Shown here in pieces: positions 2,621 to 33,526 of a stretch of 34,974 nucleotides of DNA. Each line of letters begins with the position of its first letter. Position 1 is the first letter of the stretch. Location: IMG/VR virus record IMGVR_UViG_2778261250_000007; one strand, 5' to 3'. Position numbers and translations under genes: made by a program. The DNA comes from a virus. Lineage: Duplodnaviria; Heunggongvirae; Uroviricota; Caudoviricetes. Below the pieces are notes generated by a model that saw nothing but the letters and a program-made list of their open reading frames with translations, had not been told where the DNA came from and made no database searches.

Positions 2621-2732
2621 AACTGAAGTTGCCCTGAAAATGAAATTTTTTTGCACAACCGCAGAACTTTTCCGCAGGGCATCAGTCTTAATTAGTGCCA
2701 CTGCTTTTCTTTGATGTCCCCATTTTGTGGAG

Positions 2733-2776
2733 CCCATCAACCCCGCCATTTCGGTTCAAGGTTGATGGGTTTTTTG
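2733..2776 (+). terminator. Terminator-like hairpin downstream of ybjL (cccatcaacc / ggttgatggg, 17-nt loop, then TTTTTTG)
   Basis: 10-bp perfect inverted repeat at 2733-2742 and 2760-2769 followed by a T-run. It lies in the host-prophage junction, so it may also be part of the attachment region. Confidence 0.35.
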
Positions 2777-2855
2777 TTGCCTGAAATTTATGCCGTTTAA
2801 AATCATGACGTTAGAAGCACTGTTTTTTAACGATGGCGACAAAATGGCGGCAGCG

Positions 2856-14929: not shown

Positions 14930-15002
14930 AAAACTAGAATTTCCAAGTCTTCGCAGATATATTATGTGGAGTTTTCTCATTGACATTATCCTAGGTATCA
15001 GA

Positions 15003-16709
15003 ATGGAACATCTAAAGCAACTACTAAAAAAAACTGAATTTATCGAAAAATACGGCATTGGGAATGCACATCTATTATGGGCCTTAGGTTTATATTTGGA
15101 CGAATCAGACTTTGACAAATTAGCCTCAGATGGTTTGACTGACGGAGGTAATGATAAAAAAATAGATTTCATTACTGTAATAAATTCAACTTTATTTATT
15201 GCGCAAGGTTATTACTGCACCCAAGATAAATTGAAAATTGTTGCGCCAGCAAATAAAGCTTCCGATCTCAACACTGCTTTAGCATGGATTATTTCAGGTT
15301 CTGGTCAATCACCAAATGAAAAATTAAGAGCTAAAATTGCTGAAGTTAGAAAACTTATTGACGATAATGAAATAGAAGCTGTAGAGCTTCTATATATTCA
15401 CAATTGTGCTGAGTCAGAACACGTAAGAGTTGAATTAGAAACATGTCGTGACTATTTAGCAAATCGCTTCTCTAATAAAGAGATAGAAGTAACCTGCAAA
15501 GAGTTGGGCGTATATAGCCTTGAAAAATTATATATTGCACTTTCGCAACAAATTGTAGTAAAAGATGATATAATTTTTGATGGTACTATTGTAGACTCGG
15601 TAGAAGGTGATGGTTGGACCTCACGTGTTGGCTTCGCTAATGGCAGTTGGCTGAACTCACTTTTCAAAACCCACGGCGCTGAATTATTCTCAGCTAACTA
15701 CCGTGGTTTTATGGGGTTGAGTAAAAGAAGAAAAATAAACTCTTCCATTAGAAGTACGGCAGAGACAACTCCTAAAGACTTTTTTGTTTTTAATAATGGA
15801 GTATCAATCCTTACAACAAAATTCAGACAAGATAATAATAAGGCAATTTTAGAGGGTATATCCATTATCAATGGAGCGCAAACTACTGGTTCCATAGGCT
15901 CTGTGCAAGATATACAAAAACTTGATGGATTGAAAGTACTATGTAAAGTTATTGAATGCAATGACGCAGATAAAGTAAAAAAAATAGTTCAATTTAATAA
16001 TACTCAAAACCATATCACGACCTGGGATCATTATTCAAATAGTCCAGAACAAAAGCAGGTAGAAGAAGAGTTTTCGACCTTAGGCTATATTTACTCGTTA
16101 AAAAGAGGCTTTGAGAATACTGGTTCTTTATTTGGTATTGAGTCAGTTGCACAACCCTTAATAGCTCTACATGGAGATTATGCAAGCGCAAACAGGGGTA
16201 AAAACTATGTTTTCGACACTAAAACTGCTTATGACAATGCATTTCATGAATCAAAAGCCCAACATATTCTATGTGCATATACCATTTCGAAAGCAATAGA
16301 AAAAGTCAAGGCACAGATTAAAAATAAAGATAATAAAATAACATCTGATGAAGACAACTTACTTTTCCTGCAAAACCTCAAGTCTCGCTTCTTTTTGATA
16401 TCTATAGTCGGTGAAATTCTGGAGGAACTGGCCGACAAACCATTAAATAAAAAGTTTGTTAAATATAAATATAATACTTCACTTGCAACAAACAATTCGC
16501 TAGACGACTTAATTAACCTATGGTCGCCAGTTATCGCTGCCATTCTACCCTTTATCATTAGAGTTACAGGTCAAGATCTAACAACTTACTTATCTGAAAC
16601 AGAAGATCCTTTGCATACCGTTGCCAGTGAAGTTAAAAACAATCTCAGATCCTTAAAAGCGTTTCAACCTATAGAACCATTAAGGATCTTAGCTGAAAAC
16701 TTAGAGTAA
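15003..16709 (+). CDS. AIPR-family (abortive infection phage resistance)-like protein; AT-rich cargo gene between S and V
   Basis: 569 aa from ATG 15003 (an alternative in-frame ATG at 14964 gives 581 aa). The motifs LTDGGNDKKIDF near the N-terminus and INGAQTTGSI match my recollection of AIPR-domain signatures. Strongly AT-rich and inserted in an otherwise conserved late-gene block. Confidence 0.55.
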   Translation: MEHLKQLLKKTEFIEKYGIGNAHLLWALGLYLDESDFDKLASDGLTDGGNDKKIDFITVINSTLFIAQGYYCTQDKLKIVAPANKASDLNTALAWIISGSGQSPNEKLRAKIAEVRKLIDDNEIEAVELLYIHNCAESEHVRVELETCRDYLANRFSNKEIEVTCKELGVYSLEKLYIALSQQIVVKDDIIFDGTIVDSVEGDGWTSRVGFANGSWLNSLFKTHGAELFSANYRGFMGLSKRRKINSSIRSTAETTPKDFFVFNNGVSILTTKFRQDNNKAILEGISIINGAQTTGSIGSVQDIQKLDGLKVLCKVIECNDADKVKKIVQFNNTQNHITTWDHYSNSPEQKQVEEEFSTLGYIYSLKRGFENTGSLFGIESVAQPLIALHGDYASANRGKNYVFDTKTAYDNAFHESKAQHILCAYTISKAIEKVKAQIKNKDNKITSDEDNLLFLQNLKSRFFLISIVGEILEELADKPLNKKFVKYKYNTSLATNNSLDDLINLWSPVIAAILPFIIRVTGQDLTTYLSETEDPLHTVASEVKNNLRSLKAFQPIEPLRILAENLE

Positions 16710-25167: not shown

Positions 25168-25785
25168 TTACCAGTTAAAAATTGATGAGCTGCGAATTGC
25201 AGGAACATCCGATGGATTTCGTTTAGCAGCTGGTTCCATCAACTTACGCTTATTAAATGCCTGATCAATATAATACTCAGGATTTTTAATAAAGACAGAG
25301 TATTTTACCAATGCACAATATACGTCAGAGTCATTATAATGGGGAACTGTTTTTTCATAAACATGATTCTTTCTAACCAGATAAGGCAAATAATAATCAT
25401 ATCCCAAACCTGGCGTTCTTAGACTTATAGAACATCCGCATGATGGATCTGCACATACTGCAGGAGTAAACACACTGTCGTAAATTTCATCTCTGATAAC
25501 ACCAATTAGACCATTATAGTTTTCTCCCCAGAGTGATGCTTGAATTTCAGTGTTTACAAATGGACGATTTTTGGTTTCCGTTCCAATAAGAACGACAGTA
25601 ACCGTTGAGTCTTTTAAAAAATCCTCACGAATAGTCCTCATTATTGTTTCATCAGTGTTAGTTGTACTAATGTCACCATCACTTACCGACTTATCAATAA
25701 ACGATTCTCCTCCGAATAAATCAATAATCTCATCTTTGAGATCTTGTTCGTTAGCATGATGATAACTAAGAAACGTCTTATGCAT
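25168..25785 (-). CDS. ThsB-like TIR-domain protein (TIR_like/DUF1863 type)
   Basis: 205 aa. N-terminal TFLSYHHANEQD and central STVTVVLIGTETKNRPFVNTEI resemble my recollection of Bacillus ThsB (VFFSFHYQDV and TSVTCVLIGSQTFNRRWVRYEI). ATG at 25785 preceded by GGAGTG and overlapping the upstream gene's TAA (TAATG). AT-rich. Confidence 0.7.
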   Translation of the reverse strand: MHKTFLSYHHANEQDLKDEIIDLFGGESFIDKSVSDGDISTTNTDETIMRTIREDFLKDSTVTVVLIGTETKNRPFVNTEIQASLWGENYNGLIGVIRDEIYDSVFTPAVCADPSCGCSISLRTPGLGYDYYLPYLVRKNHVYEKTVPHYNDSDVYCALVKYSVFIKNPEYYIDQAFNKRKLMEPAAKRNPSDVPAIRSSSIFNW

Positions 25786-26516
25786 TATTCACTCCATTTA
25801 TCAACATTTATATCAAACTCTTTGACTACCTTATCATTGAAGAAATCGTTTACTTCTTTAAAACCTTCCAATACTTGACTAAAATGATAATAATGCTTTT
25901 GTATAATACTTATAGGGGTTAAATGATACGGCAATGATATAAATTCGCCGTTAGGGTCTCTATCCTTTGTGGTCACTTTATCATGATCTGAAACATATTT
26001 ATGCCATCTCCGATAATTATTTTGATGTTTTGTTAAAAAAGAGTTTAAGGTTTTCAAAATTTCATTTGAAAGTAAATACAGTTTTTTATCTCTTTTTTTC
26101 TTCACATCTAGTAATTTCATTTCATCTCTAATGAATTTATAGCACTCATAATATGAGTTTAAAACTTCTTCAATTGAGTCATAATTCGGATCAAATTTAA
26201 ATAATGTTCGCTTCGTATCCAGATAATTTTTTACGCTCTTTTTAAAAAGAAGATCAGACTTATTTAGTAAAATATTAATACCACCAAAACTAAGTTGCTC
26301 CAATCTCAATGAATATCTTTGATGAAATGCACCGACCAGCAAGATATAAGCAACTAAAAATAGTATTAATACTGATAAAAAAGCACGAATTATGCTTACA
26401 TTTGACATGAAATTAACTATAAACCACCATTTTTCAAACGGTGAAAACGGAATGCTCCCCATGATAATAAGTAGAAGAACAAAGATACAACTCCATAAAA
26501 CCCACAATCTGTACAT
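25785..26516 (-). CDS. Two-TM membrane protein with a ~170-aa helical cytoplasmic domain; candidate effector partner of the TIR protein
   Basis: 243 aa from ATG at 26516 (RBS AAGGA). TM helices LWVLWSCIFVLLLIIMGSIPF and IIRAFLSVLILFLVAYILLVGAF. The soluble domain has no motifs I can assign (no Macro or SIR2 hallmarks). AT-rich; translationally coupled to the TIR gene. Confidence 0.6.
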   Translation of the reverse strand: MYRLWVLWSCIFVLLLIIMGSIPFSPFEKWWFIVNFMSNVSIIRAFLSVLILFLVAYILLVGAFHQRYSLRLEQLSFGGINILLNKSDLLFKKSVKNYLDTKRTLFKFDPNYDSIEEVLNSYYECYKFIRDEMKLLDVKKKRDKKLYLLSNEILKTLNSFLTKHQNNYRRWHKYVSDHDKVTTKDRDPNGEFISLPYHLTPISIIQKHYYHFSQVLEGFKEVNDFFNDKVVKEFDINVDKWSE

Positions 26517-26538
26517 AAGAAAGATCCTTTTTCTTTTT

Positions 26539-26566
26539 ATAATACTGCAACTACACCTCAAGTCAA
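26539..26566 (-). promoter_or_regulatory. Sigma70-like promoter for the TM/TIR operon (TTGACT-16-TATTAT)
   Basis: Minus-strand -35 TTGACT (26566..26561) and -10 TATTAT (26544..26539) with a 16-nt spacer, about 22 nt upstream of the ATG at 26516. Confidence 0.45.
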
Positions 26567-26668: not shown

Positions 26669-26687
26669 CTCGTATCCCCGCCACGCC
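26669..26687 (-). other. Candidate cos (cohesive-end) site of the P2/186 family
   Basis: The minus-strand sequence GGCGTGGCGGGGATACGAG matches the first 13 nt of the 186 cohesive end as I recall it (GGCGTGGCGGGGAAAGCAT; P2 is GGCGAGGCGGGGAAAGCAC). Exact termini not established. Confidence 0.4.
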
Positions 26688-26730: not shown

Positions 26731-26756
26731 GCAAAAGCCCGCCAGTTCTGGCGGGC
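26731..26756 (-). terminator. Intrinsic terminator (minus strand) downstream of the DinI-like gene
   Basis: 8-bp GC-rich stem (26737-26744 / 26749-26756, loop gttc), followed on the minus strand by TTTTGC. Confidence 0.4.
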
Positions 26757-26891
26757 CTTAGCAAAAACGATCCTCAAACGATCATGCGATCTCATGCGGC
26801 ATAGACATGCACTACAGAGCTAACGCCTCGCAAGGGCTCGTTGTTCAACCTTGCTGACGCCAGAAGCAAGTTCAGACGCCAGCAACGTTTC

Positions 26892-27125
26892 TTAATGCAG
26901 CCAGCTGTCGTCTTCCCACACCTTCTGCATAATTTTCATCACTTGTTTTCTTTCTTCGTCCAGTTGCAGTCCGGTTAGTTCCACACCGTTAGAGCTACCT
27001 TTGCGAATGCGAATTACCGTTTTGGGATACAGGGGGCGCAGATTGCGGTAAAGCTCGGATTCAAGGGCGTCCAGGGTAGACTGGCTAATCTTCTGCTCTT
27101 TATCGATCATTATTTCAATGCGCAT
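26892..27125 (-). CDS. DinI-family protein (SOS-associated; 186 tum-region-like)
   Basis: 77 aa from ATG at 27125 (RBS GAGGTG): MRIEIMIDKEQKISQSTLDALESELYRNL...VWEDDSWLH, resembling the DinI start MRIEVTI... and C-terminal W-E-x-D-D-W. The track ORF is longer (101 aa). Confidence 0.7.
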   Translation of the reverse strand: MRIEIMIDKEQKISQSTLDALESELYRNLRPLYPKTVIRIRKGSSNGVELTGLQLDEERKQVMKIMQKVWEDDSWLH

Positions 27126-27135
27126 AAAAGTCACC

Positions 27136-27324
27136 TCAGCTGATGACATCCATTGAGCGGTTGTATTCGTGGGTTCTGATTTTTGCCATGAGTTCATCAG
27201 TCAATTCAGAAACCCACTGCAGAGCCAGCCCCTTCTCTTCATCACTACACTCACTAGCCGCTACAAGCTTAAGAAAAAAATCAATGCGCTGGAGCTTCAA
27301 AGACTCCAAAAAATAGTCCTGCAT
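27136..27324 (-). CDS. Small hypothetical protein, first gene of the LexA-controlled unit
   Basis: 62 aa from ATG at 27324 with GGAGGA upstream (MQDYFLESLKLQRIDFF...). No recognisable domain. Confidence 0.4.
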   Translation of the reverse strand: MQDYFLESLKLQRIDFFLKLVAASECSDEEKGLALQWVSELTDELMAKIRTHEYNRSMDVIS

Positions 27325-27365
27325 CTTTCCTCCTATGACACCACACGCAACACTGTATGTATAAC

Positions 27366-27385
27366 CACTGTTTATATTTACAGTA
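27366..27385. promoter_or_regulatory. LexA (SOS) box
   Basis: cACTGTttATATtTACAGTA matches the LexA consensus TACTGTATATATATACAGTA at 17 of 20 positions (CTG-N10-CAG intact). It lies about 45 bp upstream of the small ORF and DinI-like gene. Confidence 0.6.
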
Positions 27386-27477
27386 TATAATAATCTTACT
27401 GATGTAAAACGTTTTTTTACGTTCATCAGCCTGATATGCCTGGTATTATTAAGAGCACGAATTGTTAATCCGCGTAA

Positions 27478-29892
27478 TTAATACAGGTTCCGCCACTGAT
27501 CATCTTCCTGCAAACGCTGGTTCCGATAGAAGATACGCAGGCCTGCTCCTGACGGAATACTGCCTCCGCGAAGGAGTAAATCGACCTCTTTCTCGCTGCC
27601 ATCAAATCCTCTGGACTTCAGCTCATACACGAGCTGCAGTCGCTGATGGTCTGTAATTCGCTGTTTGTAGTCTTTACGCCGTTTCGGTTTCACCAGGCGT
27701 AACCTTGCTGCCAGTTCCCGGCGCTCTTTTTTGCTCATACTGTGCAGGTAATCGTGCAACTCCTTGTCATCCATGCTGGTAATGTCCGTTCTGGGGTCCC
27801 CATCAGCTGATTTATCTTTCTCCTGTTGGTTCAAATTTTCAGCAAGGGGACAGTTATTGCCACGAGTCCAAGGGGCGCAAGCGCCCTGGTCGGCTGCCGC
27901 CTCCTGAACGTCAACGGCCTTACGAACCATTTTCCACTTCACCGCATGAGTGCAGATCTTGCCCTCTGCAATGGGTGACCAGATGCCATAAATACGAATA
28001 CCGTGATCGCCATATGCGGTCGGTTCTTCGTTGATTTCATAAGCAGTTCTGATGAGGTGATATTTGCGGGGAACCAGTACGCCGCCCTGCTTCATGATGT
28101 AGGTGGCAAAACAACCAGCATCAGCAGCAGCCAGGATTGCATCAAGGCGCGGGTTATCCAGTACCGGCGCACCTGCTTTTTTGTCCCCCTGTTGCCTTGC
28201 CGCCTGACCAGCCAGCAATCGCAGTTCACGGTAAGCCTGACGCCCCGGAATGCCAAAGAAGCGGAATTGCTGAACACGATGCAGAGACGCCCAGGCATTA
28301 ACGTATTCAGCGTTATCACGCAGGGATTTACCCGTTTCCTTGCTGATCTCGCCAGCCAGACCACGCCCGTCAATGTTCTTACTGATGTATTTCGCGATGT
28401 AGCTTGTTGGCGTACCTTTGCGCGGGTTTATCAGCTCAGACTTAAAGCGTGGTCCCGTGTTATTACCCAGCTCCTCGCGGTCTTCACGAATGGCAAACTT
28501 ACGCAACAAAGCAGTAATGGCGCGGCGATCTTTTTTGCGCATAAAACACAACAGGTGCCAGTGAACTGTACCGTCATGATGCGGCTCAGCCACCCGCACG
28601 CCATACCAGCGCAATCCGGCTTTGTGCATCGCCTTACGAAATGCAGCAAACATGCCGACCAGATAATCACTGCTTTGTCTTACCGTCGTATTTGTCCAGG
28701 TCGGGTTGGGCCTGCCGTTATTTAGCGTGGAATGGAAACGTGACGGACAGGTGATGGTGTAGAAAACGGCGCAGTCACCACGCATTTCCGCGATAAGCTC
28801 CAGACCTTTAACACAGGCCATCATCTCATTGCGGCGATGCGCAGGGTTGCTGCTGCTGGCGTTTACCACATCCTCCATGTCCAGCGTGTCGCCGTCTTCG
28901 TTCACCAGTTCATGAGAACGGAAAAACTCCAGCGACTTACGGCGCTGCTCACGTTTATGCATCACGGCTTCATAGCTGACATAGGGAGATGCTTTTTTGC
29001 TGACCAGGCAAACAGCACGCAACTGCTCTTCCCGCCATTCGCAACGCATCTTCCATAATTTCCGGTACCACCAGTCGGCGCACAACATACGCGCCAGCGA
29101 ACCCGGAATGAGTTCATAAGGCACGGGTTTACGGCGGTTTCTTTTCCGGCGGAGTTGCTCAAACGCAGGCGGTATGACATCCAGTCGCAGGGTTTCTGCT
29201 GCCACCTTTTCCCATGTCTTGCGGATTTCTTCAGGCTTAACGTCATCGGTGGCATACAAATCGCCACAAGCTGCATCAAGGCACATGCTCATATGCGCAG
29301 CAACAAGGGTGGACAGGCGTTTCACCTGATCCTGACTCATTTCAGGCAGAATCAGCAGGCCGTCCAGCCCTTCATGGCTTGCCATAAAGCGAAAAGAAGT
29401 GGATAGCTGACTGTCGCGTACATGCTCCAGCCGTTCCAGACATGGCTTAATCGTCTCACGCAAATAGCGGGAATAAGCCTTTGGCCTGCCAAGGCTGCTG
29501 AAGTATTCAATACGTTGCATCAGCGGCTTGCTGATATGGGAAGGCTGGGCATTGACGTCCGCCAGAATGACCATATCTGGATTAAAACGCTGCTGCTCAT
29601 GCGCCAGCTTTGCCCGACTAATGAGCTTATCCTGCTCCATTTCGCGCTGGACAGGATCACGGGATTCATTAAAGAAATAACGCTCCCAGACCTGATCACT
29701 CAGTGCCTCGCGGCGCAGCTGTTCCTGCTCGTTATCGACAGCGTACAGAGTGATCAGGTTTGAAAGTGCAGAAACCGGCGCAACTTCCGCCGGGTCCAGA
29801 TAAGGGTTAATGGCCTTTTTCGGGCTGTTCCATGAGAACGATGCGGCAGCCTCGTTAAAGCCGCAGCAGTTGTTCATATCGGCATGGCTCAT
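27478..29892 (-). CDS. A: Replication initiation protein A (rolling-circle endonuclease)
   Basis: 804 aa, ATG at 29892; size and position as P2/186 gpA. Confidence 0.85.
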
Positions 29893-32956: not shown

Positions 32957-33526
32957 GTGGATTTCAATAGCGGCGGTAAGAAAGCCATAGAACGTTTAGT
33001 TGAAGCATATGGGTTCGGTACTCGTCAGGCTCTCTGTGATCATTTAGGTGTTTCTAAGAGCACTATGGCAACGCGCTATATGCGTGATATTTTTCCAGCA
33101 GATTGGGTAATCCAGTGCGCCCTTGAAACGGGCACCTCGCTTAATTGGCTAACAACAGGGCATGGTTCAAAGCAAGCATCAGCAAATACAAATACTATAG
33201 AAGTAGAAAAATATTTATTGTCTGATGGAGCATTGCAGAAAGACGGTTTTTATATTTTTGATAAGGGATTTCTACCCTCTACGTTTAAAAAACCTTTTGT
33301 CATCACAGATAACAATTCTGAATTTATTTGTGATAAAGAATTTGATGATATACGTGATGGTAAATGGGTAATAAGTATTGATGGCGAAATAACGATCCGT
33401 GACATTACTCGTTTACCCGGTGGAAGAATCTTCGTCGAGGGTGGAAACAGAGCCTTCGAATGCAAGATAGAAGACATTGAAATAATTGGTAAAATTATAA
33501 GTTTAACAGTCAAGTATGTTAAATAG
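32957..33526 (+). CDS. cI: CI-type immunity repressor (186 CI-like)
   Basis: 189 aa from GTG at 32957 (strong RBS GGAGGA): (M)DFNSGGKKAIERLVEAYGFGTRQALCDHLGVSKSTMATRYMRD... The track ORF starts 29 codons upstream at a GTG without an RBS. Confidence 0.7.
   Translation: MDFNSGGKKAIERLVEAYGFGTRQALCDHLGVSKSTMATRYMRDIFPADWVIQCALETGTSLNWLTTGHGSKQASANTNTIEVEKYLLSDGALQKDGFYIFDKGFLPSTFKKPFVITDNNSEFICDKEFDDIRDGKWVISIDGEITIRDITRLPGGRIFVEGGNRAFECKIEDIEIIGKIISLTVKYVK

Follow-up and report, generated by a model that had tools for sequence, protein, structure and literature searches.

We are confident that the locus analysed here, which lies within a 34,974-bp stretch of viral DNA (the window), is the operon for SOS induction in a prophage of the Fels-2/186 type (Peduoviridae), and that it has the two-gene form, tumA followed by tumB. 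The cassette as such is already known, having been characterised genetically in 186, PSP3, Fels-2 and DuoHS. The initial annotation had proposed a LexA-repressed cassette resembling tum of phage 186, and this proposal is supported by the 41% identity of TumB to residues 71–145 of 186 Tum (E = 3e-24), by a profile-based link between the family of the 62-aa TumA protein and the same phage protein, and by a promoter laid out like 186 p95. When the two ORFs were aligned to 186 Tum, the DinI-family ORF gave a direct match, while the 62-aa ORF was linked to it by HMM and not by BLASTP. The original emphasis on a DinI-like module holds in so far as a DinI gene is present, but the inducer appears to be the 62-aa gene upstream of it.

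On the minus strand, gene A is followed by the promoter and LexA box, tumA, tumB, a stem-loop, a terminator-like hairpin and cos (Table 1). The SOS cassette therefore sits between gene A and cos, as expected of a 186-type tum.

In a lysogen, host LexA would occupy the box over the -10 region, just downstream of gene A, and keep the operon off. Upon DNA damage, activation of RecA would lead to LexA self-cleavage, and the operon would be transcribed. TumA would then bind the 186-type CI repressor and free the lytic promoter, allowing lytic growth without CI cleavage, while TumB, translated from its own ribosome-binding site, would act on RecA filaments. The SOS transcript would stop at the terminator located just before cos. 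Such an induction route would consist of a LexA–TumA–CI relay in place of repressor cleavage.

Table 1. Features of the SOS-induction operon and associated elements in the 34,974-bp window.
Feature	Position	Strand	Description
186-type CI repressor, presumed target of TumA	32957–33526	+	Start codon uncertain; mechanical ORF from 32870
Replication gene A	27478–29892	-	Ends at 27478
-35 hexamer of the putative SOS promoter (counterpart of 186 p95)	27403–27408	-	TTTACA; read from sequence
-10 region of the putative SOS promoter	27380–27387	-	Overlaps the LexA box; two candidate hexamers, choice presumptive
LexA (SOS) box	27366–27385	.	Minus-strand reading TACTGTAAATATAAACAGTG; 17/20 versus consensus
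tumA	27136–27324	-	62-aa putative antirepressor; AGGAGG ribosome-binding site at 27334–27329
tumB	26892–27125	-	77-aa DinI-family protein; own GAGGTG ribosome-binding site
Conserved stem-loop	26847–26889	-	Directly 3' of tumB; minimum-free-energy fold
Intrinsic-terminator-like hairpin	26733–26757	-	GCCCGCCAG-AA-CTGGCGGGC then TTTT; GC-rich; from sequence and fold
cos cohesive-end sequence	26669–26687	-	GGCGTGGCGGGGATACGAG; 15/19 versus the 186 cos 19-mer

LexA box and SOS promoter

A near-consensus SOS box, reported earlier at about 45 bp before the 62-aa ORF, is present, with 41 nt between the box edge and the ATG of the ORF and 43 nt between the core and this ATG. The 20-mer CACTGTTTATATTTACAGTA (27366–27385) agrees with the LexA consensus TACTGTATATATATACAGTA at 17 of 20 positions and forms a 20-bp palindrome, the left arm of which reads TACTGT on the minus strand. 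It is the sole match with at most three mismatches in the 34,974-bp window, and none of 100 shuffled sequences contained such a match. The CTGT-N8-ACAG core also occurs only once in the window (27368–27383); taken by itself, this bare core is weak evidence, since at least one match was found in 33 of 100 shuffles. The same box sequence is present in Fels-2 and DuoHS, and all eight of the divergent phages examined carry a near-consensus box ahead of their tumA-like gene. LexA is predicted to bind the box in the window.

The promoter was positioned by analogy with the mapped p95 promoter of 186, annotated as TTCACA and TACTGT separated by 18 nt. As in 186, where the LexA box covers the -10 hexamer TACTGT and the cassette follows gene A, the -10 region of the putative promoter in the window lies inside the LexA box. 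Its -35 hexamer, TTTACA (27408–27403), is found about 70 nt downstream of the end of gene A on the minus strand and is kept in six related modules despite diverging flanks. Two hexamers could serve as the -10 element, both overlapping the LexA box: TACTGT (27385–27380), with a 17-nt spacer and the same layout as in 186, and TATACT (27387–27382), with a 15-nt spacer. A scan for sigma-70 consensus promoters reported none at the SOS module, because a -10 element overlapping the LexA box is weak.

Two additional sequence elements were observed around the promoter. About 5 nt past the full LexA box, a conserved sequence at 27351–27360 (minus strand, ACATACAGTG) resembles the right half of a LexA site; the related modules all retain ATACAG within it, whereas the neighbouring bases vary. 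The promoters of 186 and PSP3 are instead preceded by ACATACAG. In the interval separating gene A from the SOS promoter, an AT-rich inverted repeat (CTGATGAACGT-AAAAAAA-ACGTTTTACATCAG) spans positions 27400–27430, with the -35 hexamer located in its right arm. This repeat, which is not conserved in more distant modules, may act as an insulator or terminator against read-through from the early operon.

Products of tumA and tumB

The 62-aa ORF begins 5 nt downstream of an AGGAGG sequence, and its product shares 61 of 62 residues with STM2728 of Fels-2 and likewise with the tum product of DuoHS. No match to this protein was found in Pfam, no relative was found in a search of PDB sequences, and a BLASTP comparison with 186 Tum gave no match. 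Nevertheless, it could be recognised as a remote homologue of the N-terminal part of 186 Tum. An ungapped Smith–Waterman alignment with Tum residues 6–41 scored 57, against 21 ± 4 for shuffled sequences. An HMM of the 62-aa family scored 19.9 bits on the N-terminus of 186 Tum and 21–30 bits (maximum 29.7) on Yersinia TumA-like proteins, and the reverse HMM, based on Tum N-terminal proteins, scored 23–27 bits on the 62-aa family. The motif common to the two groups is roughly LERIDxIARLxAxxxCxxRDRExALxWIAELA. Together, the profile scores of 20–30 bits, obtained against small targeted sets, and the Smith–Waterman score support placing the 62-aa protein and the N-terminal half of 186 Tum in one family. 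The AlphaFold2 model of TumA is a two-helix hairpin with a pLDDT of 90; the predicted hairpin is acidic.

The presence of a DinI-family ORF after the 62-aa ORF was confirmed by a match of its product to the entire PF06183 profile (positions 1–63 of 63, E = 6.5e-23, 81.3 bits with a cut-off of 24.2). TumB can also be aligned along its full length with the E. coli DinI structure 1GHH (residues 1–77, E = 2.7e-6), and it matches positions 71–148 of 151 in phrog_189. All 77 residues are identical in Fels-2 (STM2726.1) and DuoHS, and the identity to PSP3 TumB is 78%. Relative to E. coli DinI (PDB 1GHH, 7YWA), the full-length alignment is accompanied by low identity (about 30–35% for the TumB group) and, unlike the host protein, TumB is phage-encoded and co-transcribed with the antirepressor.

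The DinI ORF had initially been drawn with an upstream extension (26892–27197). A mechanical ORF of 101 aa does exist, but the true start is ATG 27125, which is also the start called by NCBI, and the protein is 77 aa long. This ATG lies 10 nt past the TGA codon of tumA, which is overlapped by the GAGGTG sequence of tumB. The 101-aa form is a mechanical artefact, since the open stretch upstream of this start shrinks from 25 codons to 14 or 4 in relatives.

DinI homologues modulate RecA and are common prophage cargo. TumB is probably a generic modulator of RecA filaments which tunes the SOS signal, and it is most likely dispensable for the switch itself. In Gifsy prophages, deletions of the dinI homologues caused no measurable change in induction (PMC3121763).

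Comparison with characterised prophages and the role of tumA in induction

The P2-like prophage DuoHS of E. coli HS carries the same pair of genes (ECHS_RS04495, ECHS_RS04500). The single difference in TumA is conservative, with T51 in the window and S in DuoHS, and the DNA from the -35 hexamer through the LexA box is identical. Both prophages have the same chromosomal neighbourhood (ybjL side), and their CI proteins are about 90% identical. The DNA sequences diverge immediately past the tumB stop codon, and different cargo is found between tumB and the portal gene.

In DuoHS, either an in-frame deletion of tum or the lexA G85D (Ind-) allele abolishes mitomycin C-induced lysis and the formation of virion foci (PMC12055606, PMC11195241). 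The tum-deletion primers, ATAGGAGGAAAGATG and TGAGGTGACTTTTATGCGCATTG, join the ATG and the TGA of exactly the 62-aa ORF, and their sequences indicate that the design leaves tumB and its ribosome-binding site intact; the core of each primer is found once in the window. The lexA(Ind-) result establishes SOS dependence, which is distinct from direct binding of LexA at the box. The suggestion that the prophage is likely to be SOS-inducible is thus supported through DuoHS, the tum gene product of which differs by one residue. By this analogy, DNA damage (UV, mitomycin C and probably fluoroquinolones) would very probably induce the window prophage, with LexA binding, transcription and inducibility of its own copy being extrapolated from the relatives. 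The prophage could be defective elsewhere and yield no phage even with a working switch.

Fels-2 of Salmonella Typhimurium LT2 has the same module, with an identical LexA box; unlike in the window, further genes follow tumB. According to Lemire et al. 2011 (PMC3121763), tum is split into two halves in Fels-2 and PSP3, and in PSP3 the upstream half is the antirepressor and the downstream half is a DinI homologue. The PSP3 record describes tumA as 'similar to 5' end 186 tum; UV induction of prophage' and tumB as 'similar to dinI and 3' end of 186 tum'. The two genes of PSP3 have the same order as in the window, follow a LexA box and are likewise flanked by gene A and cos; PSP3 TumA has about 19% identity (12/62) to that of the window. 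PSP3 tumA and tumB are in the same frame with a stop codon between them, whereas in the window they are 10 nt apart and in different frames.

In phage 186, the 146-aa Tum protein carries its antirepressor part at the N-terminus and its DinI-like part at the C-terminus, fused in one frame, while in the window these parts are encoded by separate genes; an annotated internal start in 186 yields a free DinI-like product. The Tum protein of 186 sequesters CI (PMC7708051). More distant parallels are provided by the dinI-gfoA/gftA operons of Gifsy prophages and by AntC of N15, where, as proposed for the window, LexA-repressed small antirepressors act against a non-cleavable repressor. In the Gifsy operons, the antirepressor is likewise paired with a dinI homologue, but in the reversed order, with dinI first. 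The repressors and antirepressors of Gifsy and N15 belong to families different from those of the window.

An alternative interpretation assigns induction to the DinI-like protein itself, which might for instance boost RecA activity against the repressor, and leaves the 62-aa ORF as no more than a leader or accessory peptide. Within the module, only DinI has a database family, 186 Tum is DinI-like in its C-terminal half, and the 62-aa protein is labelled hypothetical in databases. However, in DuoHS the deletion of the 62-aa ORF alone, with tumB intact, abolishes induction, and in PSP3 the antirepressor activity is ascribed to the upstream gene (PMC3121763). Moreover, a LexA box and a TumA-like gene with no DinI gene nearby were found in Erwinia phage ENT90, three Yersinia enterocolitica phages and the ESSI-2 group. 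The values for PSP3, whose TumB is 78% identical and whose TumA is only about 19% identical to the window counterparts, indicate that specificity resides in the variable TumA, with TumB as a generic component. We therefore consider it very unlikely that TumB is the inducer and retain TumA in this role.

Two conserved cistrons

The initial annotation left open whether the two ORFs derive from one tum-like gene by a frameshift or encode two separate proteins. The modules of the window, DuoHS, Fels-2, SopEPhi, a Klebsiella phage and a Yersinia phage were compared. In all six, TumA is 62 aa long and TumB is 77 aa long, while the tumA–tumB spacer is 10, 11 or 12 nt across relatives, resulting in relative frames of +1, +2 or 0. 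A phmmer search against 1.84 billion representative proteins retrieved 66 relatives of the 62-aa protein, nearly all of them small, and in none of the 66 is the part C-terminal to the TumA match long enough to hold a DinI domain. Because the TGA codon, the 10-nt spacer and the frame change separate the two parts, the window module represents the split form and not the single-polypeptide form found in 186; judging from the sequences collected, the fused form of 186 looks like the exception.

If tumA and tumB were the frameshift remains of one 186-like tum, the locus would be a pseudogene and SOS inducibility would have been lost. The combined length of the two products (62 + 77 = 139 aa, compared to 146 aa for 186 Tum), the location of the two ORFs in different frames, and the 25 codons for which the DinI frame remains open upstream are all in line with such an origin. 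Against it, the arrangement is the same base for base in Fels-2 and DuoHS, the latter being inducible through its tumA-equivalent gene, and relatives keep both lengths with spacers that give every frame relation. The upstream extension is reduced to 14 or 4 codons in these relatives, tumB starts at a separate ATG behind a separate ribosome-binding site, none of the 66 relatives is a fused protein of the tumA type, and the annotated internal start in 186 falls at the same domain boundary. The frameshift origin was thus rejected as extremely unlikely, and the view that the locus encodes two separate proteins, as two conserved cistrons, was adopted.

In one phage record the reading frames of the module are broken. 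The sequence of NC_049342.1 (Escherichia phage 500465-1) at positions 601–1131 is nearly identical to that of the window except for single-base indels within tumA and within tumB, which disrupt both frames and give rise to the annotation of a 106-aa 'DinI' protein. These indels are probably a sequencing error in the record.

TumA type and the CI repressor

The CI protein of the window contains both a helix-turn-helix domain and a CI C-terminal domain (PF07022 and PF16452). The genes alongside it encode Apl/Cox-like and CII proteins according to PHROGs, indicating that the matching 186-type switch is present.

The two domains of CI were compared separately between phages. The window and DuoHS CI proteins are 88% identical in the N-terminal domain and 91% identical in the C-terminal domain. 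The corresponding values for Fels-2 are 71% and 28%, despite the 61/62 identity of its TumA. For 186 CI, the identity in the N-terminal domain (roughly residues 30–100 of the window ORF) is 42%. In all 11 of the 11 phages carrying a TumA of the same type as the window (ORF1-type, 84–100% identity), the N-terminal domain of CI is 70–82% identical and the C-terminal domain 27–43% identical to those of the window, while in phages with other TumA types the identity of the N-terminal domain is in the range of 37–51%. Across 22 related, and thus phylogenetically non-independent, phages, the Spearman correlation of TumA type with CI identity was 0.93 when the N-terminal domain was considered and 0.00 for the C-terminal one.

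Linkage cannot explain this contrast, because both domains are adjacent in one gene, and the contrast suggests that TumA recognises the DNA-binding domain of CI. One could tentatively hypothesise, with rather less than even confidence, that a single near-invariant TumA inactivates CI proteins with differing C-terminal oligomerisation domains by recognising their N-terminal DNA-binding domain. If true, Fels-2-type prophages of different immunity that share a host cell would induce one another in trans through their TumA proteins. Our literature search, outside which the older work on 186 fell, found no paper stating which domain of CI is bound by Tum.

The co-variation of TumA type with the N-terminal domain of CI, together with the near-identity of the module to the DuoHS tum that is needed for induction and its conserved position by gene A in phages with a 186-type CI, makes it extremely improbable that the cassette is merely an SOS-regulated accessory 'moron' which aids the host during DNA damage and has no role in prophage induction, even though DinI homologues are frequent modulators of RecA among prophage cargo and the Gifsy dinI deletions left induction unchanged.

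Prevalence and annotation of the module

The tumA/tumB module was found in 1281 of 5426 complete E. coli genomes, or about a quarter, and in 88 phage records. The putative inducer gene is nevertheless still labelled 'hypothetical protein' by the NCBI pipeline and assigned to phrog_698, of 'unknown function', in PHROGs, and it has no Pfam family. Since the module is common and its inducer remains unlabelled, the useful outcome of this analysis is a correction of annotation, with the 62-aa protein named as the TumA antirepressor, and no discovery is claimed.

Public gene calls often lengthen the 62-aa protein to 84–101 aa (27136–27426, minus strand). A 96-aa ORF starting from ATG 27426, used in many metagenome gene calls, was rejected because this start lies upstream of the -35 hexamer and the LexA box. 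In UniRef, the family of the 62-aa protein also appears under the name 'Levan regulatory protein', for which this analysis gave no support.

Downstream region, cargo genes and genomic position

The stem-loop directly 3' of tumB (26847–26889) has compensatory changes in 6 of its 18 pairs, in a comparison of only four sequences, and its flanks are conserved. It is not a standard terminator, because it has no U-tract; possible functions are those of an RNA 3'-end or stability element and of a partial terminator. The hairpin at 26733–26757, to judge by its sequence, is the probable end of the SOS transcript. A terminator scan did not report this hairpin, because its T run is only 4 bases long.

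The location of the cassette next to cos, noted in the initial annotation, was borne out by the cohesive-end sequence, in which 15 of 19 positions match 186 cos, and by the cos flank, which has 77% identity to the 186 end junction over 93 nt. The 243-aa gene downstream of cos was considered as a homologue of orf97, which lies downstream in 186, on account of a length equal to those of 186 orf97 and Fels-2 STM2726. This size match is a coincidence, because BLASTP shows no similarity, and the window gene is unrelated to orf97.

Between cos and the portal gene, the window carries a two-gene cargo on the minus strand (25168–26561), at a spot occupied by other genes in DuoHS and Fels-2. One of these genes encodes a ThsB-like TIR protein of 205 aa (PF08937, 1e-14; PADLOC ThsB, 4e-12). 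Its overlapping upstream partner, of about 243 aa with hydrophobic N-terminal segments, had no match in Pfam, PADLOC or PHROGs. The gene pair may constitute a Thoeris-like defence pair. A 581-aa AIPR/AbiU-like protein (PF10592, 3e-26; PADLOC AbiU, 5e-28) is encoded between tail genes on the opposite strand (14964–16706, plus), at a position where DuoHS has no gene, and is likely abortive-infection cargo.

At the ogr end of the prophage, the RybB sRNA was identified about 80 bp away (2700–2778, plus strand; Rfam RF00110, 105 bits), adjoined by a ybjL-like gene at 935–2617. The placement of RybB indicates that the prophage is integrated beside or at the 3' end of rybB, a neighbourhood it shares with DuoHS of E. 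coli HS.
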